The notes beneath the pieces are model-generated. The model was not told where the DNA came from and ran no database searches. It saw only the letters and a list, made by a program, of their open reading frames with translations. The position numbers and the translations under genes were made by a program. From Escherichia phage Lw1, in the sequence record KC801932: a stretch of DNA of 64,000 nt, one strand, 5' to 3'. Below, piece by piece: positions 1,407-59,495 of the stretch. How positions within the stretch are numbered: the first letter of the stretch is position 1; each line of letters starts with the position of its first letter.

Positions 1407-2270
1407 ATGGCATATCAAACAGGCAAAAAATTAATTGACGTGGGGCAGATCGGCAACCCGTCAACTGGTGACCCGCTGTATGACGGCGGTGTAAAACTTA
1501 ACGAAATCATCACCAACGTGTATAACGCGTTTGGTGATGTGCGTTTACTGACTGCAAACGATGGTGTGGGTACAATGCTGCTCCACGCTACCGGATATTT
1601 TCAGAAGTTACCACGTACCTATTATTCAGGCAATCCGATCGAACTGGGTTCCTTGCATGATATGGATACGTCAACAGGACCGATCACGGTTGTTCTTCCT
1701 TCTGGCAAAGCGGGTGAAGGATGTTATTTCATAAATAGTAACGGTAGTATTTCTGTTGACCGTCCTCTGGTGTTCCGTCCTCAAGTTGGCGATAATATCA
1801 AAGGTGTCCAGGATCAGCTTTACATCACCTCTCCATACACCCAGATTAAATTGTGGTGTGTTAAGAAAGAGGGTTCTGTAACCACATGGGATTATTCAGT
1901 CGAATCAATGTTCGGCTCTAAAACAATGCCAGTGGATACTACCAAACTAATTCTGAAAGCATCACCGACCGCAATTCCTTTATTCGGTTACACTGAATTC
2001 AGCGGGGCGAAATTGCTCGTATATGCTGAAAGTATGACAGGAACAGTCAATAAAATGGCTGAAATCCTTCTCGCGGTAGACCGTATTGCTAAAGGCGTGT
2101 ATTCAACAGAATATGCTGTTCTGAAAAATAGCGATGACGATATGTACACCCTTACTTTCACTGTCGGCGCTGGTGATGTGGTATATGCAAACGTACAATC
2201 CAAAGTCGAAGATCGCATTAAGTTTTCGATTAAAGCGATTGACACCATTAAATCAGGGATCGCAGCATGA
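1407..2270 (+). CDS. 9: baseplate wedge / long-tail-fibre socket protein gp9
   Basis: 287 aa; KKLIDVGQIGNPSTGD..., CYFINSNGSISV and SVESMFG match recalled T4 gp9; synteny. Confidence 0.85.
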   Translation: MAYQTGKKLIDVGQIGNPSTGDPLYDGGVKLNEIITNVYNAFGDVRLLTANDGVGTMLLHATGYFQKLPRTYYSGNPIELGSLHDMDTSTGPITVVLPSGKAGEGCYFINSNGSISVDRPLVFRPQVGDNIKGVQDQLYITSPYTQIKLWCVKKEGSVTTWDYSVESMFGSKTMPVDTTKLILKASPTAIPLFGYTEFSGAKLLVYAESMTGTVNKMAEILLAVDRIAKGVYSTEYAVLKNSDDDMYTLTFTVGAGDVVYANVQSKVEDRIKFSIKAIDTIKSGIAA

Positions 2271-4084
2271 AACAAGAAATTATTATAGGTAACGTGGTTG
2301 ATGACGGCGCTGGCGATTACTTACGCCGTGGTGGTCAAAAAACAAACGCGAACTTTACCGAATTATATGAAAAGCTGGGTGACGGGGAAATCCCTCACCC
2401 AGCGGGTGCGTGGAAAACGCATTCCGCTCCTACATTGAACCCTATTTTTGGTGATTCATGGGCGCTGAATACCAGTAACAACCGTATTACTGTAAACCTC
2501 CCTAAAGGGGGCGTAAGCGATTATAACAAGGTTATTCGTCTGCGTGATGTTTGGAGTAAATGGGCGGTTAACAACGTGCGTATCGTTCCGGCAACGGGAG
2601 ACACCATCAAAGGTTCACCAACTTACAAAGAACTGTACAAAGATTTCATGGATGTTGAACTGGTTTATTGTGCTCCTGGGCGTTGGGAATACGTCGAGAA
2701 CAAACAGGTTGACAAAATAACAACTTCGGATCTGGCTACCGTAGCGAAAGAAACCTATATCGCAACTCAGGGACAGACAGACTTCCCGAATGTGTTCGGT
2801 CCTGGCAACATGTACAACGTTCGTGCTCTCGAAGTCTACTATCGTGGTAACTTGCTGTACATCGACGATAAGAACGGCTTTAATGAAGCAAACAGTGATT
2901 ACGGTTCGCCTGGGGCAACTGCGGGGCAACTCGTAGAACTGGATGGAACCAACATACGCCTTAAACGTCCCTGTAACGCTGGTGACACGCTTCAATTTGT
3001 CACCTATATGGATGGTATAGCAACATGGCGTTCGACGTATGAAGCGCATACAATGCGCGTATACAACACTGGAGACACTGAACTTGTGAGCGTACCTGGT
3101 GAAATCTGGGTTGGCGATCTGGCTAACAAGAAAGAATTCACCACTGCTGAATTTGGTATCAGTTCCCGTGTGTTGATTAACCCGAATTCATTCGAACTGC
3201 TGCTGAACGGTCGTCAGCTTGTAAAAGCAGGTGATGCGGATCTTCCTACGTTTGTTTGTGAAGGTGCGGAAGGTTATGATGAAGATAGCTGTTTGGCTAA
3301 CTCCGGTTTATGGGTTCCGTCTGGACAGGATTACAGTCTAATCTTTGTTAACTCTATTGTGACTGGGATTAAGTTTCATCAGGCACTGGAAACCCGCGAT
3401 GTGGTAACAATCCGTTGGTTCAATAACGATATCGGAACCGTAATGGAATGGGACGGCGTAGGCGGTATTAAAGAGCATACGGATAAACTGTATCTGAATA
3501 ACGAAGACGAATTGACTTTGGTTAATCAGATTGAATATACAGACTACAACAACCCGTCACAAAAAACAATGCGTAAGGTTGCAGATCCTTTCGTTGGTCG
3601 TCTGTTGGATTTGCAAGCGTTTTTCGATGTGATTCACCCTATTGGGACAATTTACGAAAACGCACACAACGACGCAAACCCAGGCGATTATATGGGATTT
3701 GGTATCTGGACACGATATGCAGAAGGGATGTTTATTGCTGGTTGGACTACCGATGCAGCAGATAGCGATTTTGGGCTGAACAATAACGATCTGGATGGTT
3801 CCGGTCAACCTACACACACATCAGGTGGTACTGGTGGTGAACGCGGCTACGAAATCAAACCGATCAACGTTCCACAAATCGAATCTACCGATAAAGTTCT
3901 GATTAAGGACGATAACGGGATCATTATCATTGGTGGTTGTCAGGTTGACCCAGATGCAACAGGACCAGGATACACTAAATACCGTGAGGATGTATTGAAA
4001 GTAAATCAGGGTAATACTACTCCTGATAAGCTGAAAACGCTCCCTCCGTATATTACTGCACATCGCTGGATAAGGGTAGCATAA
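2267..4084 (+). CDS. 10: baseplate wedge protein gp10
   Basis: 605 aa; N-terminus IGNVVDDGAGDYLRRGG and C-terminus YTKYRED...RWIRVA match recalled T4 gp10; start overlaps gp9 stop. Confidence 0.85.
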   Translation: MKQEIIIGNVVDDGAGDYLRRGGQKTNANFTELYEKLGDGEIPHPAGAWKTHSAPTLNPIFGDSWALNTSNNRITVNLPKGGVSDYNKVIRLRDVWSKWAVNNVRIVPATGDTIKGSPTYKELYKDFMDVELVYCAPGRWEYVENKQVDKITTSDLATVAKETYIATQGQTDFPNVFGPGNMYNVRALEVYYRGNLLYIDDKNGFNEANSDYGSPGATAGQLVELDGTNIRLKRPCNAGDTLQFVTYMDGIATWRSTYEAHTMRVYNTGDTELVSVPGEIWVGDLANKKEFTTAEFGISSRVLINPNSFELLLNGRQLVKAGDADLPTFVCEGAEGYDEDSCLANSGLWVPSGQDYSLIFVNSIVTGIKFHQALETRDVVTIRWFNNDIGTVMEWDGVGGIKEHTDKLYLNNEDELTLVNQIEYTDYNNPSQKTMRKVADPFVGRLLDLQAFFDVIHPIGTIYENAHNDANPGDYMGFGIWTRYAEGMFIAGWTTDAADSDFGLNNNDLDGSGQPTHTSGGTGGERGYEIKPINVPQIESTDKVLIKDDNGIIIIGGCQVDPDATGPGYTKYREDVLKVNQGNTTPDKLKTLPPYITAHRWIRVA

Positions 4085-4746
4085 TGACACAATTTATTTC
4101 AAAGACAAGGGAGGGGGCGAAAGTCCCTTCTCGTGAAGCAGACTTTTTGCAATATGAAATGGGTACGAAAGAACCCCTTATTGGTGGTAAACGTACCATC
4201 GGCGGTGCAAACGTTGATCAGCTTCGCAAAGGGATAGACTATCCCAACGTACAATCAGCAATCGATGACCTGTATTCTCTGACTCAACAGATCCCGATTA
4301 ACGGGGTTATCATGATGACAGAAGACAGTCCACCGACCGCTGTTCAGCAGGTAGAAACAATCACGTTTGATGGAACTGTACAAAATCCAGATCCAGACCA
4401 AACGAAAGCAACCGTTCATGTTTATGGCTTTCCGTTTGTATTCGATAACACAACGAACGCCTCTACGGTATGCGAAACAGTATTCAACAAGTTTACTGAA
4501 TTTGTCAACGACGAAAAATATTTCGATCTGGTTACGCGTAAAGGATTGAACGGGGAAATTCTGGAAGTTCGTTTTATTGATGCGGTTCCACATCCGGTAA
4601 CTAACGCAACAGAAAACGGGATCTCTATGGTTGGTGTAATCGACGTACAGGCGCGTTCTGGTTACGGTACGTGGTCGAAACTGGGTGAGATTGATCTTGC
4701 TGTAACTCCACCTGTTCCGATTTATTATTTCAAACGTATTGCGTAA
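4084..4746 (+). CDS. 11: baseplate wedge protein gp11
   Basis: 220 aa; C-terminal GYGTWSKLG...YYFKRIA resembles T4 gp11 C-terminus; synteny. Confidence 0.8.
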   Translation: MTQFISKTREGAKVPSREADFLQYEMGTKEPLIGGKRTIGGANVDQLRKGIDYPNVQSAIDDLYSLTQQIPINGVIMMTEDSPPTAVQQVETITFDGTVQNPDPDQTKATVHVYGFPFVFDNTTNASTVCETVFNKFTEFVNDEKYFDLVTRKGLNGEILEVRFIDAVPHPVTNATENGISMVGVIDVQARSGYGTWSKLGEIDLAVTPPVPIYYFKRIA

Positions 4747-4755
4747 GGATAACCA

Positions 4756-6147
4756 ATGAGTAACAACACAATTAACCACGTAAGCGATGCGTCAGTTTAC
4801 GTGACTTTCGATCCGGCTGGTACGCAATGGCCTTCGACGTTTACCAACGTACAGCAAGCCCTAGCCTCTATAGGCTCATGGGCGCGTGAAGATGTGGGTT
4901 TGCCTAACGCTGCCCCTGGTGTGCGTGGTATCGCTGCTATTGCTACCGAGGCGATGATTGACGCAGGTACTGACACCGAAACGATCGTTACTCCAGCGCT
5001 GTTGGCATATCGTTTACAGAATCCTCATGCGTCACAAACTGTATGGGGTTATACCCGTTATGCGACCGATGCAGAAGCAACCACAATCACTAACGATTTG
5101 GTTTCTGTAACTCCGCGTTCTGTTGATGTTATTTTCAACACCAGACAAGCAACAGAAACTGTATGGGGTTCTGCGAAACTGTCAACTACAGCACAAGCAA
5201 CATCAGGTACTGATGACACAACCGCAATGACTCCATTGAAGGTTAAACAAGCGATCTCCGCTCTGGTTCCGGTTCAATCTAACGCAACGGAAAGTTCGTT
5301 CGGTTTGGTTCAGTTGGCTACGGTTGCAGAAGTCCGCGCAGGTACTATCCGCGATGGATTTGCAATTTCACCATATACGTTTATTCGTCTGAATGCAACA
5401 GAATCCGATCTAGGTATTATTCGAATAGCTTCACAGGGTGAAGTCAACACAGGCGCTGATGATACAAAAGCTGTTACCCCGCTGAAACTGGCTAACTTGA
5501 AAGGTTCTGGTAGCGCGTTTGGTTTGGTTAAATTATCAACAGATGTAAACACAGGGCTGGCGAACACAGCGCTTTCTGCTGGTGCTAACGTGGTTCCGAG
5601 CAACCGTGATAGTGCAATTACTGGTGGTGCTCTGTATCAGGGTTCAGTTACTGGTGCTAATAAATACCAAACACATAGCGACGTTGAAGCAAATATTCCT
5701 ATTGGGTGTATGATGCTCGCGGCATTCAACTCAGATTACGGAAACCTGTTTATCGCAAACGGTCGCGCGATGAATAGAAACGCAAACCCAGAACTATTTG
5801 CACGTATTGGCTACGCATATGGCGGTAGTGGTGATATTTTCAACCTCCCAGATATGCGCGGGGTTGCTGCTCGTGGTTTCGATGCGGGACGTGGGTTAGA
5901 TCCTGGTCGCGGGTTTGGTACATATCAGGCCGATGCGTTTGCGTATCACGAACATAACCTACAGATGATTTTGCTGAACGGCGGTAATATTCCATCAAGT
6001 CAGGCTGTTTATGAACTGAAATGGGCCAAGAAAAATGACCAACGAATCTATGATTTAGATCCGAACTATAGCAAAGCTAAGGGTGTTGGTGCTAACGAAA
6101 CGCGAATGAAAAACGTTGCGGTCAACTATGTAATTCGAGTACGATAA
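4756..6147 (+). CDS. 12: short tail fibre protein gp12
   Basis: 463 aa; repeated A-x-x-G-T/A-DDT-x-A-x-TP fibre repeats; C-terminus NVAVNYVIRVR resembles gp12/gp37 C-terminal receptor-binding region; synteny. Confidence 0.8.
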   Translation: MSNNTINHVSDASVYVTFDPAGTQWPSTFTNVQQALASIGSWAREDVGLPNAAPGVRGIAAIATEAMIDAGTDTETIVTPALLAYRLQNPHASQTVWGYTRYATDAEATTITNDLVSVTPRSVDVIFNTRQATETVWGSAKLSTTAQATSGTDDTTAMTPLKVKQAISALVPVQSNATESSFGLVQLATVAEVRAGTIRDGFAISPYTFIRLNATESDLGIIRIASQGEVNTGADDTKAVTPLKLANLKGSGSAFGLVKLSTDVNTGLANTALSAGANVVPSNRDSAITGGALYQGSVTGANKYQTHSDVEANIPIGCMMLAAFNSDYGNLFIANGRAMNRNANPELFARIGYAYGGSGDIFNLPDMRGVAARGFDAGRGLDPGRGFGTYQADAFAYHEHNLQMILLNGGNIPSSQAVYELKWAKKNDQRIYDLDPNYSKAKGVGANETRMKNVAVNYVIRVR

Positions 6148-6159: not shown

Positions 6160-8448
6160 ATGATTTCAAAACTTAACCCGTTACCAAAGATCCCGTTTGT
6201 TGATGGTGTCCCTTCGGACACCACACAAACCCCGATCAGTTGGATTCTTAACGGTGAGACTCTCGACGGGGCCAAAACAAAGGTCACTAGCGAGGGTTCT
6301 TTAAACAGATGCGGCGTTCTGGTTCAAAAGAACGCGGTGCAATTGGAAACAAACACCATTACGCAAACGGCAAAAATCAACGAAGTTATCGATCAAGTTA
6401 ACCTCATTAGTGAAAACCTCGCGGCTATTTCTGATGAAAGCGTGATCGAAAAACTGGATCAGGTCGTTGCTGATGTGGAAGTGTTAAAAGTCGATATGAC
6501 TGCGGTTCAAGGTTCTACCGCAAGCAATACCCTGAAAATTCAGGATCTCGATAAAGATATCGGGACATGGGATGCTACAACAGATCCAAAACACCGAACC
6601 ATTCGCAAAGATATTATTTTTCTGAAAGGGGAAATGGGCGCATATCCTGGATTTAATCAGGACGGTGACGTAGATCCTACTTCAACTGGCTCTGGAATGA
6701 AATACAAAATCATGACGAACGCGCAAGCGATTTCGATTCATGAAGGGCGTATTACCAGACTGGAAGACGATTGGGCCAACTCAGATGTAGGCCATTTAAC
6801 TGATGAAGTTACCGACTTGCGTAATGAAATGGGGCCGAAACATTTAGCAACGTTTGAATCGGTGTACGTTCGTCTGAATAAAATTGGTACGGATATCACT
6901 GGGATTAATACCGAACTGACAGAAATCAACCAATATATCGGTCGTACTGGTACAGGTGGTTCTGGAAGTATTTCTGCTCGAATGACTACGGCAGAAACGA
7001 ATATTGTTACTCTGCAAACGCAGATGAATGATTCTTCCGTTGGTGTTCTTCCTCGCGTAATTTCTCTTGAAAACCAAGTTGGGAATTCGCAGGTTCCGGG
7101 TAGTATTCGTTATGATATCAGTAATATCAAACGTGACATTAGCGACCTGAATATGGTTGTTGGTGAATCAAGCGATGAAGGGCTACGGGGCGAAATGGCT
7201 CAGGTTATGTCCGATATCGGTACAGATTCACAACCTACAAGCATTAAAGGCCGTCTGCTTAACGTAGAGAATACGCAGCGCGACGATCACCAGCGTTTGA
7301 TTGATGTCGAATCTATTGTTGGTAACACCTCAAGCGGACTTGTTGCGGCTAACATCGCAATGGGTAAAGCGGTTTATGGTGATGCAACCAGTTCAGATCC
7401 GTTCCTCAAAGACGGTATTCAGAAAACGACTCGCGATAGCAAAACTGCAATTGGTGTCAACACTACAGGTTCTGAAACTGGAATCTATAAGTTGATTTCC
7501 GATCTGACTGCTCGTGTTGCTGCTCTGGAAAGTGGTTCTGGTAGTGATCTCGAACAGCGTGTTTCCGATCTTGAAGTCAATAAAGCATCGCATCAGGACG
7601 TTACAAACGCACTGGTTCCGTATATTACTGAAACTGAGGCCGATATCAAGTACGAACCGAAGAAGATTCCGCTTGCGTTCACTCAAAACCTCGTTGGTCG
7701 AAATGATTATATCGAAGGTGATGACATTTCTCTGATGGTTACTGTATCTGGTGGTAAAGTCCCTTATGCGTACCAGTGGAAGAAAGACAACGCGAACGTA
7801 GGTACGAACGCATCAAGTTTGATGATCCAGACCATCACATCGGCTAACGCTGGCGTGTATAAGGTTGAAGTAACTGACGCAGATAACACGGTTATCACTT
7901 CTAACGAATTGACAATTGCTGTTTATCCGGTTCCTCAGTTCGATACTAACCTGGCTGATAAATCAGTGGTTGACGGTGATCCTCTGACTCTGGAAGTTGT
8001 GTATAGCGGCGGTAAACCTTCGTACACTTACGAGTGGTTCAAAGATAACTCTGTTATCTCTGGGGCAACATCAGCAACATTTACCAAATCTGCGGTTACA
8101 AGTGCCGATGCTGGTGAATACTATGTTTCTGTGACTGACTCGATGAACAACCAAAATGATTCAGTGAAAGCAAATGTGACGGTAACACCACGTCCTGCAC
8201 TGGCATTCACTACGGATCTGAGTTCTACTAAATCATATAGCACAGGTGCTGATATGGACCTTGCTGTTGTCGTAACTGGTGGTAAAACACCATATACGTA
8301 CAAATGGTTTAAAGACACTGCGGAAATTTCCGGTCAGACAGGCGCAAGCCTTACCACTGTAGCAGAAGATGGAGTGTATAAAGTCGAAGTGACTGATGCA
8401 CTAACGACTAAAATCACATCAACTGAATGCACGGTAACTGTTGCATAA
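6160..8448 (+). CDS. wac: fibritin (whisker) with three C-terminal Ig-like repeats
   Basis: 762 aa; N-terminus LPKIPFVDGVP...ISWILNGE...SEGSLNR matches recalled T4 wac N-terminus; long serine/threonine-rich coiled-coil segments; last 260 aa are three tandem 85-aa repeats (GGK-x-PY-x-Y-x-W-x-KD ... G-x-Y-x-V-x-VTD). Confidence 0.75.
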   Translation: MISKLNPLPKIPFVDGVPSDTTQTPISWILNGETLDGAKTKVTSEGSLNRCGVLVQKNAVQLETNTITQTAKINEVIDQVNLISENLAAISDESVIEKLDQVVADVEVLKVDMTAVQGSTASNTLKIQDLDKDIGTWDATTDPKHRTIRKDIIFLKGEMGAYPGFNQDGDVDPTSTGSGMKYKIMTNAQAISIHEGRITRLEDDWANSDVGHLTDEVTDLRNEMGPKHLATFESVYVRLNKIGTDITGINTELTEINQYIGRTGTGGSGSISARMTTAETNIVTLQTQMNDSSVGVLPRVISLENQVGNSQVPGSIRYDISNIKRDISDLNMVVGESSDEGLRGEMAQVMSDIGTDSQPTSIKGRLLNVENTQRDDHQRLIDVESIVGNTSSGLVAANIAMGKAVYGDATSSDPFLKDGIQKTTRDSKTAIGVNTTGSETGIYKLISDLTARVAALESGSGSDLEQRVSDLEVNKASHQDVTNALVPYITETEADIKYEPKKIPLAFTQNLVGRNDYIEGDDISLMVTVSGGKVPYAYQWKKDNANVGTNASSLMIQTITSANAGVYKVEVTDADNTVITSNELTIAVYPVPQFDTNLADKSVVDGDPLTLEVVYSGGKPSYTYEWFKDNSVISGATSATFTKSAVTSADAGEYYVSVTDSMNNQNDSVKANVTVTPRPALAFTTDLSSTKSYSTGADMDLAVVVTGGKTPYTYKWFKDTAEISGQTGASLTTVAEDGVYKVEVTDALTTKITSTECTVTVA

Positions 8449-8454
8449 TTTAAC

Positions 8455-8475
8455 AAGGGGCGCAAGCCCCTTTTG
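8455..8475 (+). terminator. stem-loop plus T-run downstream of wac
   Basis: GGGGC-gcaa-GCCCC followed by TTTT. Confidence 0.55.
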
Positions 8476-8483
8476 AGGATCAT

Positions 8484-9407
8484 ATGATTACGAACAACCC
8501 TGAACAATTGAAGGATGAAATTCTTCGTCGTCTGGGCGCACCAATCATCAAAATCGAAATCACACAAGACCAGATTTACGATTGCATTCAACGCGCACTG
8601 GATCTGTATGCGGAATATCATTACAACGGAACAAACAAAAGCTATATTATTCTGACACTGGGCGAAGATAACCCACGCAACGTATTTGATTTGAGCAAAG
8701 AACACATTTTCGCGATCACAAAAGTATTGCGTACAAATATCGGTTCCCTGGTTTCTATGGATGGTACAGCGGTTTATCCGTGGTTTACCGATTTCCTGAT
8801 GGGGCTTACTGGTGGTTCATTGGGCGGTCGCTGTTCATCCAGTGTATACGGTATGAACGCATACGGTGCGGATCTGGGGTATTTTACACAGATGATGTCC
8901 TATCAGCGCTCGATGCAAGATTTGCTGGCTCCGTTGCCTGATTACTGGTACAACGATGACACTGGTCAATTTTGCGCATGGGGTAAAGTCAACTACGGTG
9001 ATATCATTGTTATTGAAGCGATGGTCCGTTCTTTCGTTGACGTTCCTAGTGCCGTAGGAAGCGTTGCAGGATACGCTACAGCGGGTTCTAACGCAGTAGA
9101 AGACCAATCTATAGCCGACATCTACGATAACCCTTATAACGCGGTTGTGGGCGGTGTACGTGCGGGGCAGGGAACAACTGTTACTGGTGGAACCTCTGCA
9201 TATAACAACCGTTGGGTAAAAGACTACTCGACCGCGCTGGTAAAAGAAATCAACGGACAAATTCTGGCTAAGTTCCAGGGTATGCAATTGCCTGGTGGTG
9301 TTGCTCCTGATGGAACGCGACTGATCCAGGAAGCAGAAACCAAATTACAAGGATTGCGCGACGAACTGATTTCTATGTCTGACGCAGTTCCTATTATTAT
9401 GGTGTAG
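8484..9407 (+). CDS. 13: neck protein gp13
   Basis: 307 aa; LRRLGAPIIKIEITQDQIYDCIQRALDLY and YNNRWVKDYSTALVKEINGQILA match recalled T4 gp13. Confidence 0.85.
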   Translation: MITNNPEQLKDEILRRLGAPIIKIEITQDQIYDCIQRALDLYAEYHYNGTNKSYIILTLGEDNPRNVFDLSKEHIFAITKVLRTNIGSLVSMDGTAVYPWFTDFLMGLTGGSLGGRCSSSVYGMNAYGADLGYFTQMMSYQRSMQDLLAPLPDYWYNDDTGQFCAWGKVNYGDIIVIEAMVRSFVDVPSAVGSVAGYATAGSNAVEDQSIADIYDNPYNAVVGGVRAGQGTTVTGGTSAYNNRWVKDYSTALVKEINGQILAKFQGMQLPGGVAPDGTRLIQEAETKLQGLRDELISMSDAVPIIMV

Positions 9408-9415
9408 GGGGAATA

Positions 9416-10162
9416 ATGCAAAACTGGGATGAAAGTTTATTCGCTCAGTTGTCAACGGGAGAGGGAGTTGATCGCAACTTAAAGGATCAAGTTACTAACC
9501 CGTATGTAAACTGGTACAAATATAACCCGACACAACAGCTACACGATTCACTGACAGCAGAATCCATACAGATGAAATCACCTGATATGTATTATGTCAG
9601 ACGTGAATTTGTGAATATAGATAAAATACTGGGTGAAGACCGAGAATCTAAATTTACGAAATCGTGGAAGATTGCGGCATATATTGAATCATACGCCAAC
9701 TACGAAGGACAGCGGGACTTCTTTAGCAAATTTGGGTTGAGTTCTAACGACGAAATGACGCTGGTACTGAATCCGCGTTTATTTGCACATCAAACTGATG
9801 GTGGTATTCCTGTGTTGGGGGATTTGATTTATTTCCCTATGGACAACAGCCTGTTTGAAATTACATGGGTGGAAGCAGATCCGTTCTATCAGTTCGGTGA
9901 TCGTCCTCAACGTAAAATCAACCTGGCTAAATTCATCTACACGGGCGAAGAATTGGCTCCTGAATTGCAGCGAAACGAGGGAATCCATATTGAACCTGAT
10001 GCAGAACTGGATCTTGAACCTATTCGAAATCTCGACGGGCTGGCAGATATCAACATTGAACAGTACGAAGAAGACAAAGAATTTGAAAAAGAAAGTGACG
10101 AGTTCATCGATTCTTTTGATGTTGTCAACGGACGCGGATCTCCATTCGCAACGTTGCCCTAA
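9416..10162 (+). CDS. 14: neck protein gp14
   Basis: 248 aa; NPYVNWYKYNPTQQLHDSLTAESIQM and DLIYFPMDNSLFEITWVE match recalled T4 gp14. Confidence 0.85.
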   Translation: MQNWDESLFAQLSTGEGVDRNLKDQVTNPYVNWYKYNPTQQLHDSLTAESIQMKSPDMYYVRREFVNIDKILGEDRESKFTKSWKIAAYIESYANYEGQRDFFSKFGLSSNDEMTLVLNPRLFAHQTDGGIPVLGDLIYFPMDNSLFEITWVEADPFYQFGDRPQRKINLAKFIYTGEELAPELQRNEGIHIEPDAELDLEPIRNLDGLADINIEQYEEDKEFEKESDEFIDSFDVVNGRGSPFATLP

Positions 10163-10219
10163 ATAGTTTATATGGGTATAGGCGAAAGTCTGTACCCTCT
10201 TCGAAGAGGATTTTATGAT

Positions 10220-10945
10220 ATGGTTGCAAAAATCTCTATAGAACAAAGAGAACATCAATTAAAAGAACGTTGTGCGGAATTAGAACTATCTTTTGATGGA
10301 TGGGTAGACCAATCAGCGATCACAAAATATTCAAAGTTTTATGTTGTTTGCAGTAAAGGACATAGAACAGAAAAACAGATCAAACCATTTGTCAACAAAA
10401 GTCGTCCAAACGGATGTTATTTGTGTTCCCCTAAGATGAAAATATCAAAGGAAAACAGAATCGAGGAAATCAAAACTCTTGCAGATTCAATTGGATATAC
10501 ATTCGTAGATTTCGTTGGGGTGTATAAAGATGCACACACAAAAATATCAATGGTTTGCGATAAAGGCCATAATTGGGATGTAAGTATAGTTGCTTTTCTC
10601 AATCAAGGTCATCGCTGTAAAAAATGCGCAACGTCTGGGTTCAATCCGAACAAACCAGCATACGTATACGTACAATCACTATCTGGAAAATTTCTGAAAT
10701 TTGGGATAACCAACAGAACACCAAAGAAAAGAATGTGTGCGCAATCAAATAAATCCGTTTATAAACACGAACTGGTTTATCAAAAATTATTCGATAAAGG
10801 TATTGATGCAATGAGTATTGAACAGAAGATCAAACAATCTCTTGTTTGTGGCGTAGTCGATAAATCAGATATGATGGATGGATATACAGAAACAACAGAT
10901 ATATCCAATTACGATAAACTGTTGAATATTATAGAAGGAGTATAA
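10220..10945 (+). CDS. putative endonuclease with tandem zinc-ribbon modules and a C-terminal GIY-YIG-like (T5orf172-type) domain, inserted between genes 14 and 15
   Basis: Two repeats of C-x-KGH-x(15-20)-GC-x-x-C; C-terminal AYVYVQSLSGKFLKFGITN resembles GIY-(spacer)-YIG; start chosen at in-frame ATG 10220, which is 11 nt downstream of a GAGG; the six-frame track ORF begins at 10172. Confidence 0.5.
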   Translation: MVAKISIEQREHQLKERCAELELSFDGWVDQSAITKYSKFYVVCSKGHRTEKQIKPFVNKSRPNGCYLCSPKMKISKENRIEEIKTLADSIGYTFVDFVGVYKDAHTKISMVCDKGHNWDVSIVAFLNQGHRCKKCATSGFNPNKPAYVYVQSLSGKFLKFGITNRTPKKRMCAQSNKSVYKHELVYQKLFDKGIDAMSIEQKIKQSLVCGVVDKSDMMDGYTETTDISNYDKLLNIIEGV

Positions 10946-14127: not shown

Positions 14128-16119
14128 ATGGCTTTACAATCTCCAGGTATTGAAACCAAAGAAACATCGGTACAATCTACCGTTGTTCGAAATTCAACTG
14201 GTCGCGCTGCCATTGTTGGTAAATTTTCATGGGGGCCAGCTTATCAGATCCGTCAGATTTCTAACGAAGTCGAACTGGTAAACTATTTTGGTTCCCCAGA
14301 CAACCTAACCGCTGATTATTTCATGAGTGCTGTTAACTTCTTGCAGTACGGTAATGATCTCCGTGTGGTTCGTGTTGTCGATAAAGATGCCGCAAAAAAC
14401 GCAAGCGCAATTTTTAACCAGATCAAAACAACCATTGCTTCGCAGGGTTCCAACTACACCGTTGGCGACGTAATTAAGGTAAAATATAGCAACAACGTAG
14501 TTGAAGAAAATGGTAAAGTGTCAAAAGTTGACAGTAACGGCAAAATCCTTGCGGTAGTCATCCCAAGCGAAAAAATCGTTGCTCGTGCAAAACAGATCGG
14601 GACTTATCCAGATATTTCTACTGGCTGGACTACTGAAATCGTTTCTCAGTCTTCTGGTGTGTCTGCGTCAATCACGATCGATGGTATCGAAAGCGATTCT
14701 GGTATCACTCTGCTGAACCTGGATATTGCTAAAGAAACCATTCAAGGAACTGCGTTCCAGACACTGACCCAGAAATACCAGATCCCATCTGTTGTGGCTC
14801 TGTATCCTGGCGAACTGGGTTCTACTGTAGAGGTGGAGATTATCTCCAAAGCTGCTTACGATTCTGGCGCTATGATTTCCGGTTTCCCTTCTGGGATCTC
14901 CGTTAAAAACAGCGGTCGCTCTGTGATGACTTATGGTCCACAGACCGAAAACCAGTACGCTTTTGTTGTGCGTCGTGGTGGTATTGTACAAGAATCTTTC
15001 ATCGTGTCAACAGAAAAAACCGACAAAGATATCTACGGCGTAAACATCTATATGGATGACTTTTTCGCTAACGGTGGTTCACAGTACGTATTCGGTACTT
15101 CTATGAACTGGCCTAAAGGCTTCTCCGGTATTCTAGAATTTGGTGGTGGTTTGTCCTCAAACGACACCGTAGGCGCTGATGAACTGATGACTGGTTGGGA
15201 TATGTTCGCTGATCGCGAAGCCCTTCACGTCCCGCTGCTGATTGCTGGTGCTTGTGCTGGTGAAACCGTAGAAGTAATGTCTACTGTTCAGAAGCATGTT
15301 ATCTCGATCGGTGACGAACGTCAGGATTGTACTGTGTTTGTATCGCCTCCGCGTTCTCTTCTGGTGAACATTCCTCTTGCTCAGGCAGTGGATAACATCG
15401 TTGAATGGCGTATGGGATATACAATCAGTGGTAACACTCCGGTAGACAACAACCTGAACGTAAGTTCAAGCTATGGCTTCCTGGATGGTAACTATAAATA
15501 TCAGTATGATAAATACAATGACGTGAACCGCTGGGTTCCGCTGGCAGGTGATATCGCTGGCCTGTGTGTTTACACTGATAGCGTTGCGCAACCGTGGATG
15601 TCTCCGGCTGGTTACAACCGTGGTCAGATCCGTAACTGCATTAAACTGGCTATTGAACCGCGTACTGCACACCGTGACGCGATGTATCAAGTTCAGATTA
15701 ACCCGGTAACAGGTTTTGCAGGTGGCTCTGGTTTCGTTCTGTTCGGTGATAAAACACTGACTAATGTTCCGAGTCCGTTCGATCGTATCAACGTTCGTCG
15801 CTTGTTCAACATGATCAAGAAAGACATCGGGGATAACGCGAAATACAAACTGTTTGAAAACAACGACGATTTCACCCGTGCTTCGTTCCGTATGGATACT
15901 GGTCAGTACATGACGAATATTCGTGCGCTGGGTGGTTGCTATGATTACCGTGTAATCTGCGATACCACGAACAACACGCCGGATGTAATTGATCGTAACG
16001 AGTTTGTAGCGACCATTTACGTGAAACCGCCACGTTCTATCAACTACATCACTCTGAACTTCGTAGCAACGTCTACAGGCGCAGATTTCGATGAATTGGT
16101 AGGGCCACAAGCCGTATAA
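14128..16119 (+). CDS. 18: tail sheath protein gp18
   Basis: 663 aa; N-terminus SPGIETKETSVQSTVV and C-terminus RSINYITLNFVATSTGADFDEL match recalled T4 gp18. Confidence 0.92.
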   Translation: MALQSPGIETKETSVQSTVVRNSTGRAAIVGKFSWGPAYQIRQISNEVELVNYFGSPDNLTADYFMSAVNFLQYGNDLRVVRVVDKDAAKNASAIFNQIKTTIASQGSNYTVGDVIKVKYSNNVVEENGKVSKVDSNGKILAVVIPSEKIVARAKQIGTYPDISTGWTTEIVSQSSGVSASITIDGIESDSGITLLNLDIAKETIQGTAFQTLTQKYQIPSVVALYPGELGSTVEVEIISKAAYDSGAMISGFPSGISVKNSGRSVMTYGPQTENQYAFVVRRGGIVQESFIVSTEKTDKDIYGVNIYMDDFFANGGSQYVFGTSMNWPKGFSGILEFGGGLSSNDTVGADELMTGWDMFADREALHVPLLIAGACAGETVEVMSTVQKHVISIGDERQDCTVFVSPPRSLLVNIPLAQAVDNIVEWRMGYTISGNTPVDNNLNVSSSYGFLDGNYKYQYDKYNDVNRWVPLAGDIAGLCVYTDSVAQPWMSPAGYNRGQIRNCIKLAIEPRTAHRDAMYQVQINPVTGFAGGSGFVLFGDKTLTNVPSPFDRINVRRLFNMIKKDIGDNAKYKLFENNDDFTRASFRMDTGQYMTNIRALGGCYDYRVICDTTNNTPDVIDRNEFVATIYVKPPRSINYITLNFVATSTGADFDELVGPQAV

Positions 16120-32558: not shown

Positions 32559-32899
32559 TTATGAAAATCGTTCAGCGTAATATCAGCGAAGTTAGCCAGG
32601 AAGAAAAAGTTCAGATTCATTTCAAATTTAATGATCTGAAACGTGGTTATGCAGAAATTGCCCGTGTTCATGGGCTGGACAATGGGGATATTTATATGAT
32701 TGTCCAAGAAATTGAGCGAATTCGTGCTTTCCGTGCGGAGAACCCGAAAGTAAAACGCGTTCTGCGTCGTGTATATGTCAACAAACACCGCAAAGCGGCG
32801 AAACAAGTTAAAACCAAACGCGAACCGCGTCCAGATAACAAACGTAAAGCAATCAACGGTGCTATGGCGCTGGCTTTCCAGGAAGCGGGTTTAGTGTAA
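32555..32899 (+). CDS. hypothetical basic protein
   Basis: 114 aa; lysine/arginine-rich C-terminal half; start overlaps the preceding stop. Confidence 0.5.
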   Translation: MIMKIVQRNISEVSQEEKVQIHFKFNDLKRGYAEIARVHGLDNGDIYMIVQEIERIRAFRAENPKVKRVLRRVYVNKHRKAAKQVKTKREPRPDNKRKAINGAMALAFQEAGLV

Positions 32900-53034: not shown

Positions 53035-54615
53035 ATGGCGAATAACGAATTCATGGCGTTATTCGGCCCTGATAGTTTCACGGCGAATGTGTTTTCAGAA
53101 GCAAACGCCGTGAAATATCGGCTTGTTGTGCGTGGGGCTAATTTAAGCTCTACGCTCAACACGGTCGAGGTTTCTATTAACGGGGCTGATATTATCAACC
53201 GAAACACACAACGCGATCGCGGAATTAACCTAGCTATTATTGACGGAACAACTTTAGCATTATTGGATCACAAGACATTTGATATGTACGGCGATCCTGC
53301 TACGAACGGGAATGCACTTAGGGATTATCTGGATTCTCTTCCCGCGAATAGAATTGTGTGTTTTTATACCTACGACGCAATAGGCGGTGATGCTAACTTT
53401 ACTACAATCATGCGTAAGTTGGGATCTGTTGCATGGCCCGAAGCAAGATATTTTTCAAATGACGATCGTCGTCGTTCATCATATTCTGCGATCTATTCAT
53501 CAACCATGAAGAAAATCTGTATGGAAAACTTTGTGGGTGGTGCTGGTTCTGCTTCAAAGGATGACACCAGAAGTTTTGTTGAAGTCGTATTTGACGAATT
53601 CAGCGATATAGGCGTGACGGGTATTCCTGAACGTATGGTTGATGACGTAAACACATATCAAAACAGTGGTACAATGTACGGATATCATGCGTATGGTTTA
53701 TGGAATGTTGGAACCGATGTATTCCGTGGGGATATATTCAAAGTTACAGCAGACGTTTACTGTTCGCAAGAACTCCGAGATGCTGGCGGTGATACATATC
53801 TTTATATCTGGACTGAAACGACTGGTTCGCAATGGGTAACGTCTTCACTGATCCGAACTTTGGGTCTTGCTGCTGATACATGGCATTCGTTGTCTATGTA
53901 TTTCACGATCCCACAGGGAACAGAAAACGCTAAGATGGGATGTCAGGTTTATCACTATCCGTCAACTGTTAGCGTTGGTTTGTCTCAGTGTCGTAATGTT
54001 CAGATCTCAAAAGTACCACGCGAAGAAGTAAATCGTAATGGCGCTGCAATTGGTGTGAACGGTGTACGTATGCAGACGCTTTCCGAAGTCGATGATGCTG
54101 GAACCGAAAACCCGATTGAACAGTTGCTTTCATTGCCTGTATCACCTGCTGGAACACCGAGCAATAAAACGATTGTTTCACATAACTTCGCAGAACTCGA
54201 TTATCTTGTTTCTGATCCGGTTGAATACACGTCAACGGATACAACGAAATACTTGGTTAAAGAGTGGGCGAATAAACAGTATGATTCTGCTACCGTTTCT
54301 CTAAGCAGTGTGGGGGCTAAACCTGGCGATACAATGAGAATTGCTATCCAGGCCAAACGCGATGCAACGGCGATTTCTAACGATAAACGTTCGTTGGTTA
54401 CTGCACAATTCCTTGATGCTAACGGTCAGTATCTGTCAACTGATATACGCATTCAAGATGTAAGCACTATTCCGAACGTGTATACATTCTACAAGATGGA
54501 AGGTGTTATTCCTGATAATGCTGTTACATTTAACTTCGGGTTTTATCGTTATCCGAATAATACACGAACAGGATCTGTGTCTGTTAAAGACGTTAAACTG
54601 TCTATCGTTCGTTAA
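53035..54615 (+). CDS. 35: long tail fibre hinge protein gp35
   Basis: 526 aa; N-terminus MANNEFMALFG....FSEANAVKYRL and NRIV motif align with recalled T4 gp35 N-terminus; larger than T4 gp35. Confidence 0.72.
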   Translation: MANNEFMALFGPDSFTANVFSEANAVKYRLVVRGANLSSTLNTVEVSINGADIINRNTQRDRGINLAIIDGTTLALLDHKTFDMYGDPATNGNALRDYLDSLPANRIVCFYTYDAIGGDANFTTIMRKLGSVAWPEARYFSNDDRRRSSYSAIYSSTMKKICMENFVGGAGSASKDDTRSFVEVVFDEFSDIGVTGIPERMVDDVNTYQNSGTMYGYHAYGLWNVGTDVFRGDIFKVTADVYCSQELRDAGGDTYLYIWTETTGSQWVTSSLIRTLGLAADTWHSLSMYFTIPQGTENAKMGCQVYHYPSTVSVGLSQCRNVQISKVPREEVNRNGAAIGVNGVRMQTLSEVDDAGTENPIEQLLSLPVSPAGTPSNKTIVSHNFAELDYLVSDPVEYTSTDTTKYLVKEWANKQYDSATVSLSSVGAKPGDTMRIAIQAKRDATAISNDKRSLVTAQFLDANGQYLSTDIRIQDVSTIPNVYTFYKMEGVIPDNAVTFNFGFYRYPNNTRTGSVSVKDVKLSIVR

Positions 54616-54718: not shown

Positions 54719-56965
54719 ATGCCGTCCGGTGGACAAATAACGTATAAAGGCTGGCGTATCTATACCGAAAATGATCGCCCGACAGCGGAAGATATAGGCG
54801 CATTATCACTTGCTAATGGTGGTACTGTAAACAATGATACAACATTCAATAAAGACGTAACCGTAGGCGTTAACGCTGTTGTAGGGGCGTTGTTTTCAAG
54901 ATCGTATATTGATATTACTCGATCAGGAACTGAACCAAACATTGTATTTCGTCGCTCAGACGTTACTACTACGCCAACAACAGAACAAGCCCTTTTAATA
55001 ATTAACGCTATGAATGGGGCTAATCTTACTGCTGGTACGTTTAATATTCATGCGCGACCTGATGGTGGAAACAAGGTTTATATTACTGCGTATAAATCAG
55101 GATCGCAAAATACCTCATTGACTCTTGATTCACAGACACAATCGGTAACGGTAGAACAAGGTACTTTCCGTGTGCAAGGAAATACTGTTCTTGCTGGTAC
55201 TACGGCAACCAGTATGGCTGTATCTGGTGCGTTGACTGCGAATACCGTTACTCCGACGAACTGGTCAAATCATGACGTTCGTTATATGACGGGTATTCCT
55301 AACAACATAACAGGAACAAGCCTGGGTGCTGCTGAGGTAACTGAAAAGAACGATGTCCTGTCTGTATCAGGTAATATTGTTGATGGGCCTTACGGGAATA
55401 CCACGTATAACGGTCAGGTGTTGAACTATCGCCGTACTTCAAACGCTGGTAATGCTCTTACTCAGTTTTATCTGGATAATGGTGTATTCCATGTTCGTAG
55501 CGGTTCTGGTTCCCCCGGTGCGTGGTCGTGGATTGGTGGTAATGCTAACGGATGGCGCAAGGTTTACGACGAAAATAATAAGCCCACTCCGGCAGAAATC
55601 GGGGCGTTGAAAAACACAACCGATACGTTGAACGGTTCGTTAACTATCAATAGTGGTTCTTCGTTTGCTGGACTTTCTATAAGAAGTACCGCTGGACAAA
55701 GTGAATATCAGTTTGGAACAGCAACAAACACTGGTCATATCGGTATCGGAACAGTAGATCTGTATATTGGAAACCTTACCTCTGGTAAGTATATCCAAAT
55801 GTCGCATAACGGGGCTTTGACTTATTCAGGCGCGAAGATTTATCGTTCTGATGATAAACCAACTCCGAAAGAAATTGGCGCACCGACAACAGAAACTGCG
55901 TATATTAGTAATAACGATTCTATATGGGTTAAAATTGGCACTGCTACCGTAGTGCAATCAGCATCAACAATGAGCATCCGTATTACTGGTGGTTCCGGTT
56001 ATAATGCAGAACCTTCACAAGCACAATATGCGGATATTATCATTCGTAGCAACAACGGGGAATCGAAATCAATCGGCATTTCTATGTTCCGTACTGGTGC
56101 TTCTGCTCCTGGACAAGTTGGTTGGATTTATACAGGGACAGGGGATGATTATGACATCTATGTAGCTGTTGGCCCGTATCAACAAGGTGTTATGTTAACG
56201 TGGGATGGGACAGCACCAACTAAGTTTGTGCATAACATTGTTCCTGGAACAGGAACACAACCTGCTGGACTTACTCTGGGTATCACAAGCACATTGTTAA
56301 ACAGTGTGGATAGAGCAGTAACCAGTAGTGCTGTATTGAACGGTAAAACAACGCTTGCTGGCTATCTTCAATTGGATGGTACTGAGAGCACTATTCGAGG
56401 GATATACGGCGATGTCATTTTAAGGGATCATAATAATGGTAACGTGTCAGTTTCTGCTTCTCGTATAAATGGTACTCCTGGTACTCTTTATGTAGGTTAT
56501 CATAACCCAGGCATTGGTATATATTGTGCGGGTATTCGATTAGAAACTCCTACATTTGCCGCGAGTACGCTAACATGTAATGCTACATTATCATGTAACA
56601 GCAATATAACCGCTACTGGTGAAATTTATACAGCGAACAACGGCAACTTTAACGATGTGTATATTCGTTCCGATGAAAAACTGAAAAGTAATTTCAAAAA
56701 GATTGAAAACGCGTTGGATAAAGTTGATTTGATTGATGGTTTAACTTACGATAAAGCAAGTTATATCGGGGGCGAAACTGTTAATCGCGAAGCGGGTTTG
56801 ATTGCACAGCAACTACAGAAAGTATTACCGGAAGCTGTTGCGGTCAGTCGTGATGCAAAAGATAACGAAGTATTGGTGATCTCGCCTACGGCTACAATCG
56901 CTTTGCTGGTTAATGCGATCAAGGAACTGCGTGAAGAAGTAAGGGAACTCAAATCCCGAATTTAA
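54719..56965 (+). CDS. distal tail fibre protein A (gp36/gp37-like) with C-terminal intramolecular chaperone (peptidase S74-type) domain; 5' end apparently frameshifted
   Basis: 748-aa track ORF; the conserved fibre N-terminus MADLK is encoded from ATG 54664 (GGAG 8 nt upstream) in the -1 frame and joins this frame across a G5 run at 54680-54684; C-terminus YIRSDEKLKSNFKKIENAL...EAGLIAQQLQKVLPEAV matches the self-cleaving chaperone domain of endosialidase/T5 pb1-type fibres. Confidence 0.7.
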   Translation: MPSGGQITYKGWRIYTENDRPTAEDIGALSLANGGTVNNDTTFNKDVTVGVNAVVGALFSRSYIDITRSGTEPNIVFRRSDVTTTPTTEQALLIINAMNGANLTAGTFNIHARPDGGNKVYITAYKSGSQNTSLTLDSQTQSVTVEQGTFRVQGNTVLAGTTATSMAVSGALTANTVTPTNWSNHDVRYMTGIPNNITGTSLGAAEVTEKNDVLSVSGNIVDGPYGNTTYNGQVLNYRRTSNAGNALTQFYLDNGVFHVRSGSGSPGAWSWIGGNANGWRKVYDENNKPTPAEIGALKNTTDTLNGSLTINSGSSFAGLSIRSTAGQSEYQFGTATNTGHIGIGTVDLYIGNLTSGKYIQMSHNGALTYSGAKIYRSDDKPTPKEIGAPTTETAYISNNDSIWVKIGTATVVQSASTMSIRITGGSGYNAEPSQAQYADIIIRSNNGESKSIGISMFRTGASAPGQVGWIYTGTGDDYDIYVAVGPYQQGVMLTWDGTAPTKFVHNIVPGTGTQPAGLTLGITSTLLNSVDRAVTSSAVLNGKTTLAGYLQLDGTESTIRGIYGDVILRDHNNGNVSVSASRINGTPGTLYVGYHNPGIGIYCAGIRLETPTFAASTLTCNATLSCNSNITATGEIYTANNGNFNDVYIRSDEKLKSNFKKIENALDKVDLIDGLTYDKASYIGGETVNREAGLIAQQLQKVLPEAVAVSRDAKDNEVLVISPTATIALLVNAIKELREEVRELKSRI

Positions 56966-57026: not shown

Positions 57027-59495
57027 ATGGCAGATTTAAAAACGGGTACTACCATAGGCGGTAATACTATCTGGAGTCAGGCGAATTTACCCTTACTCAC
57101 TAACGGAAACACATTAACGTATAAAGGCTTTAAAGTCTATACTGAAAACGACAAACCAACGAAAGCCGAAATCGGTCTGGGTAACGTAACAAACGATGCA
57201 CAGGTTAAAAAGTCCGGCGATGAAATGACAGGAGATTTGACGTTAAAGAATAACTCGCAACTTACCGTCCCTCGCTGTATTAACCTGGTATCAGACACAA
57301 CCAATTTAGCCCCTTGGTTATTAACGACTCGTTCAGATAATAACGCGGTTACAGATCCGTTTCCATCACAGCATACACGTACATTTACGTTGTTCATCAA
57401 TACGAAGTCAAATACTTCTGATCCTGGTGGTGGCGCAAACCTTGCTGCTCTATTATCACATCAGGCAACTACTGGGGCTGGTTCTATCGAACTGCAAGCA
57501 TACGATGCACCAAACAAGACAACTGGCGCTACGGGCATTCTACGCGCTCAGATTGGGCTTAATGGTTGGGATGGTTCAATTAACCTTGCCGGTGCTTCGT
57601 TAAACGTTGGAATGACAACGACAATTAACTCTAATTTATACGCGAATGAACTCATTTCGAAAGGGGCAGGAAACCGTAACGTAACTATGCAAGACACAAA
57701 CGGCAACGAACTAGCTATGCTGTTTGCAGATACGGGTAAGAACCTGTATGTTCGTACTGGTGGTTCATATGTATCTCGTTTCGCTGCTGATGGCACTCTT
57801 ATTCTGGCTAACGGCTTGACTGTTCCGCGTCAGGTATTTGTTAACGGTGCTTCACTTCCAGTGAACAATGGTCAAGTTCGACTTGATACAAGCGCTGATG
57901 GAAACGCTGTTGGTGACGGTGCAACGCATCTTGGTATGAAATTAGAAGATGGGAAATATTATCATTATTTCCGTGGTGCTGGTGTGATGTACATTGACAT
58001 GAAAGGTGGAATATCTTCTTCAACCCCGTTGTATATGAATGGAGTTGATCAAGCAATACCTAAAGTTGAAATGCTATCTACTGGTGCTGCTGGTGCTAAA
58101 AACTTTTTGCGGCGGTTTCGTGGTGGTCTTCCTGATATTATATGGCATGAAACTGTTCAGGGTGGTGATTACCGATTAGCAATAGGGGATACCGATGCGG
58201 ATTATCAGTTAAGAATTAGTGCTGATGGTGCTAATAGAGGTGGTTATGTATTTGGTGGTACGTTTACGGCTGATCGCGGTAATGATGGATTCAAGATCCG
58301 TTATAAACCTGATACTGAATCAGCAATGTTCCAGATCTGGAACAGGGATACATCAGTATTGAACTCTTATTTCGGATACGGGTCAAGTAATCAGGCAACA
58401 GTTAACCTGTATAACCGTTTAGGTGATATTGGCGTTTCTACTCCAAACGCGGCGTTCCGTCTGGATAATACTACGTTAACTCTTGGTAACTCTTCATCTG
58501 CGGAAGCCAGTCAACGTGCGTTTACTATCAGGAACTGGGGAAACAACTCGGCGGGTGGATACCGTGCTGCTGTACTTGAAGTTGGTGACGGCACAAGTTA
58601 TCACTTTTATAGCCAACGCCGTTCTGATAACTTAGTCGAAATTGCATTTGTTGGCGATGCTTATGTCAATGGGACTACATTTCTACAGAATAACGCGCGT
58701 GTTCGTGGCAGTGACGGTATTTCTATCGAAGCGGATACAAACTGTCATGTGTGGTTTAGAACCGCTGGCGGTGCGGAAAAAGCAGTATTATATGCAGAGA
58801 ATAACGGCAGCGTAAAACTTCGTACATCAAACCAGCAATATTCTCTTACGATCGCTGACGGCATGATCCTCGCTACTGGACAACAGACAACTGGAGACAC
58901 TAGAGGGTTAATCCGTGGTGCTGTTACTGGTGGTGCGTTTGTCGCATGGCGCGATCGTCCTGCTGGTTTGCTGCTGGATTGTCCTGATTCACGAAATCTA
59001 GCATACGCTATTTGGAAAGCTACTCATTGGGGTGAACAACATATCGCATCAATGGATGTCCATGCGGGTGGCGGCAATCCAGTGGTAATTATGCACGTTG
59101 GTGGCGGTGAATTTACCTTTAACAACGTTGGTTACTTTAGCACTAACGGCGCTATGTATGCAGGTGGAAACGGCGATTTTAACGATGTCTATATTCGTTC
59201 TGATATCAGACTGAAATCTAACCTGGTTGAACTGAAAGATGCACTGAGTAAAGTTGAACAGCTTAAAGGTTATATCTATGATAAGAAACAGAAAATCGAA
59301 GATGAAGAACCACAGCATCGTGAAGCGGGTATTATTGCTCAGGATCTTCAAAAGGTTTTACCGGAAGCAGTAAGAGAAAACGAAGAAACCGGAATGTTGA
59401 CGATCTCCCCGTCAAGTGTTAACGCGCTTCTGATTACGGCAATCAATGAATTGCGTGAACGTCTGGAAGCAATCGAACGGAAAATAGGGGCGTAA
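57027..59495 (+). CDS. distal tail fibre protein B (gp36/gp37-like) with C-terminal intramolecular chaperone (peptidase S74-type) domain
   Basis: 822 aa; N-terminus MADLKTGTTIGGNTIWSQANLPL...TYKGFKVYTENDKPT parallels T4 gp36 N-terminus (MADLKVGSTTGGSVIW...YKSFKIYSEYNKP); internal FRGG...WHETVQ joint motif shared with gp34; C-terminus YIRSDIRLKSNL...EAGIIAQDLQKVLPEAV. Confidence 0.8.
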   Translation: MADLKTGTTIGGNTIWSQANLPLLTNGNTLTYKGFKVYTENDKPTKAEIGLGNVTNDAQVKKSGDEMTGDLTLKNNSQLTVPRCINLVSDTTNLAPWLLTTRSDNNAVTDPFPSQHTRTFTLFINTKSNTSDPGGGANLAALLSHQATTGAGSIELQAYDAPNKTTGATGILRAQIGLNGWDGSINLAGASLNVGMTTTINSNLYANELISKGAGNRNVTMQDTNGNELAMLFADTGKNLYVRTGGSYVSRFAADGTLILANGLTVPRQVFVNGASLPVNNGQVRLDTSADGNAVGDGATHLGMKLEDGKYYHYFRGAGVMYIDMKGGISSSTPLYMNGVDQAIPKVEMLSTGAAGAKNFLRRFRGGLPDIIWHETVQGGDYRLAIGDTDADYQLRISADGANRGGYVFGGTFTADRGNDGFKIRYKPDTESAMFQIWNRDTSVLNSYFGYGSSNQATVNLYNRLGDIGVSTPNAAFRLDNTTLTLGNSSSAEASQRAFTIRNWGNNSAGGYRAAVLEVGDGTSYHFYSQRRSDNLVEIAFVGDAYVNGTTFLQNNARVRGSDGISIEADTNCHVWFRTAGGAEKAVLYAENNGSVKLRTSNQQYSLTIADGMILATGQQTTGDTRGLIRGAVTGGAFVAWRDRPAGLLLDCPDSRNLAYAIWKATHWGEQHIASMDVHAGGGNPVVIMHVGGGEFTFNNVGYFSTNGAMYAGGNGDFNDVYIRSDIRLKSNLVELKDALSKVEQLKGYIYDKKQKIEDEEPQHREAGIIAQDLQKVLPEAVRENEETGMLTISPSSVNALLITAINELRERLEAIERKIGA

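Follow-up and report, generated by a model that had tools for sequence, protein, structure and literature searches.

The stretch of Escherichia phage Lw1 DNA analysed here (sequence record KC801932), a window of 64,000 nucleotides (nt), carries an open reading frame (ORF) that is almost certainly the wac gene of an RB43-like (Pseudotevenvirus) T4-type phage, and whose product combines a T4-type fibritin shaft with three immunoglobulin-like (Ig) domains and has no foldon. The limits of the Ig domains were set with a hidden Markov model (HMM) built from the three repeats of the window protein itself, which was also used for domain counts. The gene and the segments of its product, with positions given in the window and in amino acids (aa), are as follows:

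6160..8448, + strand: wac (fibritin, neck whisker/collar fibre), 762 aa plus stop codon, called as an ORF
6160..6339, + strand: conserved N-terminal domain, aa 1-60; aa 9-66 aligned to the T4 fibritin constructs 1ox3 and 2ibl
6340..7530, + strand: segmented coiled-coil shaft, aa 61-457, collinear with T4 fibritin (phmmer alignment, Pfam Fibritin_C)
7531..7665, + strand: junction, aa 458-502, with a Gly/Ser loop, a short last helix and the conserved motif NKASHQDVTNALVPYITETEADIKYEPKK
7666..7929, + strand: Ig-like domain 1 (type A), aa 503-590; repeat HMM 151 bits; beta-sandwich in the AlphaFold2 (AF2) model, with a predicted local distance difference test score (pLDDT) of about 90-97
7930..8193, + strand: Ig-like domain 2 (type B), aa 591-678; repeat HMM 143 bits; best Ig_3/I-set/Ig_2 stretch at aa 592-671
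8194..8445, + strand: Ig-like domain 3 (type C), aa 679-762; repeat HMM 135 bits; ends the protein

Both the identity and the architecture are regarded as near certain because of the gene order, the identity to RB43, the matches to T4 fibritin and to phrog_1056, the Pfam, PDB and fold matches, and the absence of the foldon. Upstream of wac lie gp10 (2267-4084), gp11 (4084-4746) and the short tail fibre gene gp12 (4756-6147), and downstream the neck gene gp13 (8484-9407) and gp14 (9416-10162), giving the order gp10-gp11-gp12-wac-gp13-gp14, in which gp12-wac-gp13 stand as in the annotated T4 and RB43 records. The product matched the PHROGs family phrog_1056, 'fibritin neck whisker', with an E-value of 1.2e-180. 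A megablast search with the gene returned 55 phage records, the whole gene being covered in every one; the nearest were those of Citrobacter phages IME-CF2 and Miller and Escherichia phages RB43 and RB16, all four of the genus Pseudotevenvirus, with 87% nt identity over the full length. GenBank AY266305, the RB43 wac sequence from the work of Letarov in 2005, was among the best matches.

At the protein level the RB43 fibritin (AAP04365 / YP_239189) was 92% identical to the window protein and of equal length (762 aa). The two share the locus, the N-terminal domain, the shaft, the junction and the three Ig-like domains, and differ only in sequence (81% identity in Ig1 and 96-98% in Ig2 and Ig3, with an uneven rate of synonymous substitution, dS). 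Three Ig-like domains in the RB43 fibritin and one in that of KP15 were described by Letarov & Krisch in 2013, citing Letarov 2005, and an accessory adhesin-like role was proposed for the former (PMC3797505). The architecture and the adhesion idea are already in print (2005, 2013) for this 92% identical ortholog.

The resemblance of the N-terminal part to T4 fibritin, proposed in the initial annotation of this DNA, was borne out by phmmer, which aligned aa 9-457 with residues 7-455 of T4 gpwac (E 1.5e-47); the alignment ended exactly at the start of the T4 foldon. Pfam Fibritin_C was matched with 78.3 bits, against a cut-off of 21. The N-terminal domain and the segmented coiled coil are homologous to those of T4 fibritin (PDB 1AA0, 2BSG, 3J2O), which is encoded at the same gene position; T4 fibritin has a C-terminal foldon of 27 residues (..EAPxDGxxYxRKxGxW..), a trimerising beta-hairpin propeller, whereas in the window protein the shaft is followed instead by 305 residues comprising the junction and the three Ig domains. 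In the comparison with RB43 the N-terminal domain was 95% identical, with a ratio of nonsynonymous to synonymous substitution rates (dN/dS) of 0.06, and the shaft had a dN/dS of 0.05. By analogy with T4, the N-terminal domain would attach the fibritin to the neck.

The last 260 aa consist of three tandem repeats of about 85 aa, in agreement with the initial annotation, and the GGK/Y/W/KD and G.Y.V.VTD motifs that it had quoted are exactly present in all three copies (GGKVPYAYQWKKD...GVYKVEVTD, GGKPSYTYEWFKD...GEYYVSVTD and GGKTPYTYKWFKD...GVYKVEVTD). The stretch 7672-8448 to which the repeats had been assigned does contain them, although codon 505, two codons inside domain 1, begins at position 7672, and the wac stop codon ends at 8448, so that the span takes in the stop. 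Pairwise identities between the repeats were 39%, 54% and 47%, and their local alignment scores of 142-183 stood against shuffled means of about 29-32 (standard deviation about 5.5; z 21-28), a similarity far beyond chance. No repeat was detectable at the DNA level, only seeds of 12-19 nt being found; the duplication is therefore old, and a recent tandem duplication was ruled out. The window protein stops four residues past the last strand (..CTVTVA and the stop codon), with no further domain.

The Ig-like, Hoc-like character that had been ascribed to these repeats was supported by several types of search. Above the Pfam gathering cut-offs were Ig_3 (73.2 bits against 30, in three stretches), Ig_2 (50.7 against 27), I-set (47.4 against 23.7) and SprB (46.4 against 28). 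In PHROGs, families of Hoc-like decoration proteins and of Ig-bearing tail proteins were matched at 1e-20 to 1e-59, and annotations as major tail, Hoc-like and tail-fibre proteins were all found among the matches. Sequence searches of the PDB recovered the T5 decoration protein pb10 (5lxk, 1e-13), Hoc (3shs, 2e-7), titin and other Ig arrays. The AF2 model of aa 431-762 had a mean pLDDT of 88.7 and contained three all-beta domains, each above 90, and Foldseek matched this model to titin I67-I69 (1.1e-17) and to the three Ig domains of RB49 Hoc (3shs, 1.6e-15), both with a probability of 1.00. All three repeats are thus predicted to be true Ig-like sandwiches, with the two-sheet beta-sandwich fold, and not beta-sandwiches of some unrelated kind.

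The tandem Ig-like domains of Hoc (RB49, 3SHS) and of T5 pb10 (5LXK) are of the same kind (the phrog_2973 'Hoc-like' family was matched at 2.6e-59); they are surface-exposed, vary in number and have been proposed to be weak adhesins. Hoc, however, is a monomer with a C-terminal capsid-binding domain, whereas the array in the window would stand at the tip of a trimeric neck fibre and is without such a domain. That the window protein is not itself a Hoc is indicated by the match to phrog_2973, which covered only positions 83-285 of 310, that is, the Ig part, as well as by the fibritin N-terminus and by the end of the protein after Ig3. When the six-frame ORFs of the window were searched with the repeat HMM, wac alone was found, which ruled out another gene of this Ig type (Hoc, for instance); a 499-aa ORF on the minus strand of the window is UvsW. 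Two ORFs antisense to the Ig region (8121-8318 and 8334-8705, minus strand) were set aside: they lie opposite a well-conserved coding frame, and evidence for them was neither sought nor seen.

The initial annotation had also stated that the T4 foldon was absent, and no foldon-like trimerisation motif emerged on closer inspection. Since Pfam Fibritin_C was matched over its full profile up to aa 489, and in T4 this profile runs through the foldon, a hidden foldon was looked for in four ways. The best local alignment of the T4 foldon to the window protein scored 19, less than shuffled foldons did on average (24.9). A junction-region profile, compared with all PDB chains at E<=10, did not find any foldon-carrying chain, and hhalign of the junction profile against the T4 C-terminus placed VPYITETEADI-KYEPKKIPLAFT on the foldon with an insignificant probability of 2.2%. 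Finally, 11 foldon-like motifs of T4-like contigs, among them those of one fibritin with five tandem motifs, were combined into a foldon profile, which recovered T4 wac at 1e-19 and nothing in the window protein or in 120 homologs (E<=1000, filters off). The conserved foldon residues AP.DG..Y.RK.G.W are missing from the window protein, and these searches ruled out a foldon remnant.

The fibritin with five motifs was observed on a 171 kb contig (IMGVR_UViG_2974666281_000001, here L009; match at 301-606 and downstream). It is T4-like and ends in five tandem foldon-like motifs (..EAPKNNQIYGRKNGEW.., ..DAPDDGAEYVRKNKEW.., ..DAPADTKLYGRSDNSW.., ..DAPSDTKLYGRKDESW.. and ..EAPKDGKAYVRKDGVW..), as against the two described for the JS98-type fibritin.

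The distribution of Ig domains among relatives was surveyed in the best 120 of 289 homologous protein clusters, in which domains were counted with the repeat HMM and from which two fragment clusters were excluded for the counts. The lengths of these relatives were stepwise (493, about 571-587, 663-679, 759-770, 851-853 and 941 aa). One Ig domain was found in 77 clusters, two in 8, three in 23 and four in 8, and single clusters had none or five. There are at least four Ig types, namely A, B and C as in the window and a fourth, D, and the orders encountered were A, C, A-B, A-D, C-D, A-B-C, A-B-C-D and A-B-D-C. The form without Ig domains (P0050, 493 aa; L003 4001-5482), which ends ...DYYTKVESDAKFQPKAV, and the form with five (P0041, 941 aa; L014 3001-5826) are both intact genes in the gp12-gp13 slot, as is the four-domain form of 853 aa in the isolated Citrobacter phage KKP_3664 (L004 3495-6056). 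A match to the triple Ig cassette in the 61.6 kb record of KKP_3664 (61% identity over 260 aa) was considered as a possible transfer to an unrelated small phage; this was ruled out, the record being a partial Pseudotevenvirus genome and the match its own 853-aa wac. In the fibritin of KP15/Slopekvirus (583 aa) the shaft and the junction motif are the same, and a single Ig domain, of type A, comes after them in place of the three of the window protein.

The Ig domains all open alike, with a P(L/A)xF(T/D)x(D/N)L stretch, and in the variants without type A a type-C domain joins the junction exactly at this stretch. Ig domains may thus have been gained and lost by recombination between the repeats, perhaps at their similar starts, PLAFT(T/Q)(D/N)L. 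The range of none to five domains with shuffled types extends the literature consulted, in which only one- and three-domain forms are mentioned, and is a modest lead. Judging from this range and from the shuffled orders, the Ig array is accessory and modular.

Free variation of this kind is also what could be expected if the array were a neutral passenger, acquired as a promiscuous phage Ig module and tolerated with no benefit to fitness: copy number varies freely, one lineage is without the array, and Ig-like domains are scattered over many phage structural proteins with tail, Hoc-like and tail-fibre annotations. We consider this very unlikely, as the substitution rates point the other way. 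Between the window and RB43, Ig1 was the least conserved of the three domains (81% aa identity, dN/dS 0.13, dS 0.84), and Ig2 (96%, dN/dS 0.067, dS 0.30) and Ig3 (98%, dN/dS 0.05, dS 0.22) were nearly identical; dN/dS values of 0.05-0.13 in all three domains, at dS of 0.2-0.84, speak for strong purifying selection, by which the array appears to be maintained. The length of the three-domain form is also kept, in 23 three-Ig clusters (about 759-770 aa) and in the 55 phage records. By these measures the array is under purifying selection and is not a neutral passenger. The synonymous divergence of wac was itself uneven, about 0.85 in the shaft and Ig1 and 0.2-0.3 in Ig2 and Ig3, and the lower values in the last two domains suggest that the 3' end of the gene was exchanged by recombination more recently.

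Between the shaft and the first Ig domain lies the motif NKASHQDVTNALVPYITETEADIKYEPKK (aa 474-502), in which D495 and K501 are invariant. The junction can be written KASHQDV..YITETEADIKYEPKK, with the general form KAxxxDV...YITExEADxKYxxK. It was kept in all the RB43-type variants analysed, whatever their Ig count, and was invariant or nearly so; in the variant without Ig domains it is the very C-terminus of the protein. Its pattern resembles that of the beta-layers described in trimeric phage fibres by Hartmann et al. 2016, such as KAD-KET-VYT-KAESKQE in HylP1 and ..EADKK-FKY in the neck of the P22 tailspike (PMC4786415). In the terms used for the stalks of trimeric autotransporter adhesins and for phage fibres (NadA 4CJD, HylP1 2C3F, P22 tailspike neck), the junction reads KAS-HQD...YIT-ETEADIK-YEP, the same pattern. 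The likeness is short and weak and the junction is known from its sequence alone, so that it constitutes a lead and not membership.

A sequence pattern of three-residue beta-layers with heptad-compatible spacers between them, of the KAD-xxx-VYT-Kxxxxxx type, can be traced at aa 475-500 and in every homolog, although the profile matches were weak. The motif profile matched the NadA stalk 4cjd (KANSADVYTKAEVYTKQESDNRFV) with an E-value of 0.007 and the cell-surface protein 9gh4 (DAYTKSEADNKFANKTD) with 0.044, and a longer junction profile matched the engineered beta-layer GCN4 fusions 7o9v (E 0.079) and 5apq (E 0.16). We therefore put forward only tentatively, as a candidate that is more probably wrong than right, that the junction motif, and not the Ig array, registers and caps the end of the trimer in the manner of a beta-layer. 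If the motif is the cap, the Ig array, with its 0-5 domains of at least four types, may be freely exchangeable cargo.

The explanation that we favour as a whole, to which we would give a probability of roughly 0.6, joins a shaft with T4 roles, a junction cap and an accessory adhesive Ig array. As a trimer, the fibritin would give every whisker or collar fibre nine Ig domains at its end, carried as three flexible arms of three. The shaft would keep the T4 roles of attachment to the neck and handling of the long tail fibres, the junction motif rather than the Ig array would set the register of the trimer end and cap it, and the Ig array would be an exchangeable, surface-exposed accessory module making weak, reversible contacts with glycans of the cell envelope or of mucus. 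Such contacts could raise the rate at which the tail fibres encounter their receptors, as has been proposed for Hoc and for the RB43 fibritin. Weak adhesion to cell surfaces or mucus, which was also the suggestion of the initial annotation, is a plausible hypothesis by comparison with other phage Ig proteins: the Ig domains of Hoc bind E. coli surfaces (PMC10385173), and a Klebsiella phage with a Hoc-like Ig protein was retained on mucin (PMC13435897).

Several points weigh against this explanation. The adhesive role of fibritin Ig domains is argued by analogy, and the matches that link the junction motif to beta-layers and adhesin stalks are statistically weak (E 0.007-0.3). The AF2 model is that of a single chain, has low confidence at the junction (pLDDT 58-71) and does not extend to the trimer, and the variant without Ig domains is known from one metagenomic contig alone. 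Moreover, the RB43 fibritin, unlike those of T4 and JS98, is stated to need sequences of an 'expanded C-terminal domain' to fold and trimerise, and to be unable to fold with a small foldon-like motif alone (Letarov & Krisch, PMC3797505). The Ig array is perhaps not mere cargo because of this requirement, which, together with the weak statistics, is the reason why we hold the junction cap to be no better than tentative.

The same requirement would be met if the Ig domains replaced the foldon as the folding nucleus, that is, if they folded first and registered the three chains, their main role being fibre assembly. This is quite unlikely in our estimate, given that the AF2 model shows three independent sandwiches, that a complete 493-aa ortholog without Ig domains occupies the same locus, that the domain next to the junction can be of at least two types, and that the junction motif is the sole element common to all the variants. 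Ig domains of the I-set type are, in addition, normally monomeric beads on a string.

The main rival to the adhesive reading, and a less likely one, concerns the phage's own long tail fibres, which the Ig array could dock (at the knee, gp35/gp36) during attachment and in the retracted state, thereby replacing the C-terminal region of T4 fibritin. The array would then make a contact within the virion and would not be an adhesin for the surroundings. The long tail fibres of T4 are kept 'up' by the whiskers, to which they bind (PMC10385173), and in the window gp36 is unlike that of T4 and carries a C-terminal Peptidase_S74 domain. What is hard to fit to a fixed protein-protein interface is the variation in number (0-5) and order of the Ig domains among close relatives. 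It was also observed that Ig2 and Ig3 are 96-98% identical to those of RB43, while the best relative of gp36 matches over 66% of the length at 75%, so that there is no co-variation at this scale. Novel C-termini of gpwac were reported in the work of Letarov in 2005 to co-occur with novel C-termini of gp36, which would favour docking; the S74 domain, on the other side, is normally cleaved off after folding. On balance we regard docking as improbable, and prefer the accessory adhesin.

As to the tail fibre genes of the window themselves, gp36 (54719-56965, + strand) encodes 748 aa, far more than its T4 counterpart, and gp37 (57027-59495, + strand) encodes 822 aa; both products end in a Peptidase_S74 intramolecular-chaperone domain. 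gp36 is a mosaic, its best phage match being that of Citrobacter phage Miller (66% coverage, 75% identity), in a region that is otherwise RB43-like. In gp35 (53035-54615, + strand), the proximal connector of the long tail fibre, there is at aa 62-132 a match above the cut-off to Pfam ILEI (interleukin-like inducer of epithelial-mesenchymal transition, EMT; E 3.5e-12).

The T4-type late promoter motif TATAAATA was not found directly upstream of wac, nor was a convincing terminator found after it, consensus scans being at background level; a dedicated promoter or terminator of wac was rejected, and the gene is probably co-transcribed with the upstream baseplate genes. In the whole window the motif occurred nine times against 2.7 expected, on the plus strand at 15493, 16142, 16655, 18939, 19589, 28275, 49332 and 56993 and on the minus strand at 32689. 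Several of the copies stand just 5' of gene starts, for example those of gp34 at 49370 and gp37 at 57027.

Between gp14 and gp15, at 10172-10945 of the plus strand, a 257-aa endonuclease with a CapR homology domain was detected (Pfam 9.3e-18; phrog_681 1e-62); RB43 carries at this site mobE, to which it is unrelated (BLASTP E 1.8). The stretch was 97-98% identical in nt to Cronobacter phage leE, Klebsiella phage phi1_146010 and RB16, phages whose wac genes are only 79-87% identical to that of the window, a difference that bears the signature of a mobile homing endonuclease.

The wac gene of the window is a published architecture met again in a new RB43-like phage and matters little as such, although the domain swap was recognised by the initial annotation from the raw sequence. 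The junction motif is of some relevance because engineers of trimeric antigens make wide use of the T4 foldon as a tag: should the motif prove to be the cap, the foldon would have a natural counterpart as a minimal trimerisation tag. In that case the Ig series would be a documented cassette system tuning the adhesiveness of the whiskers. The Ig domains borne on the whiskers of these phages are a natural test case for phage Ig adhesins outside the capsid.

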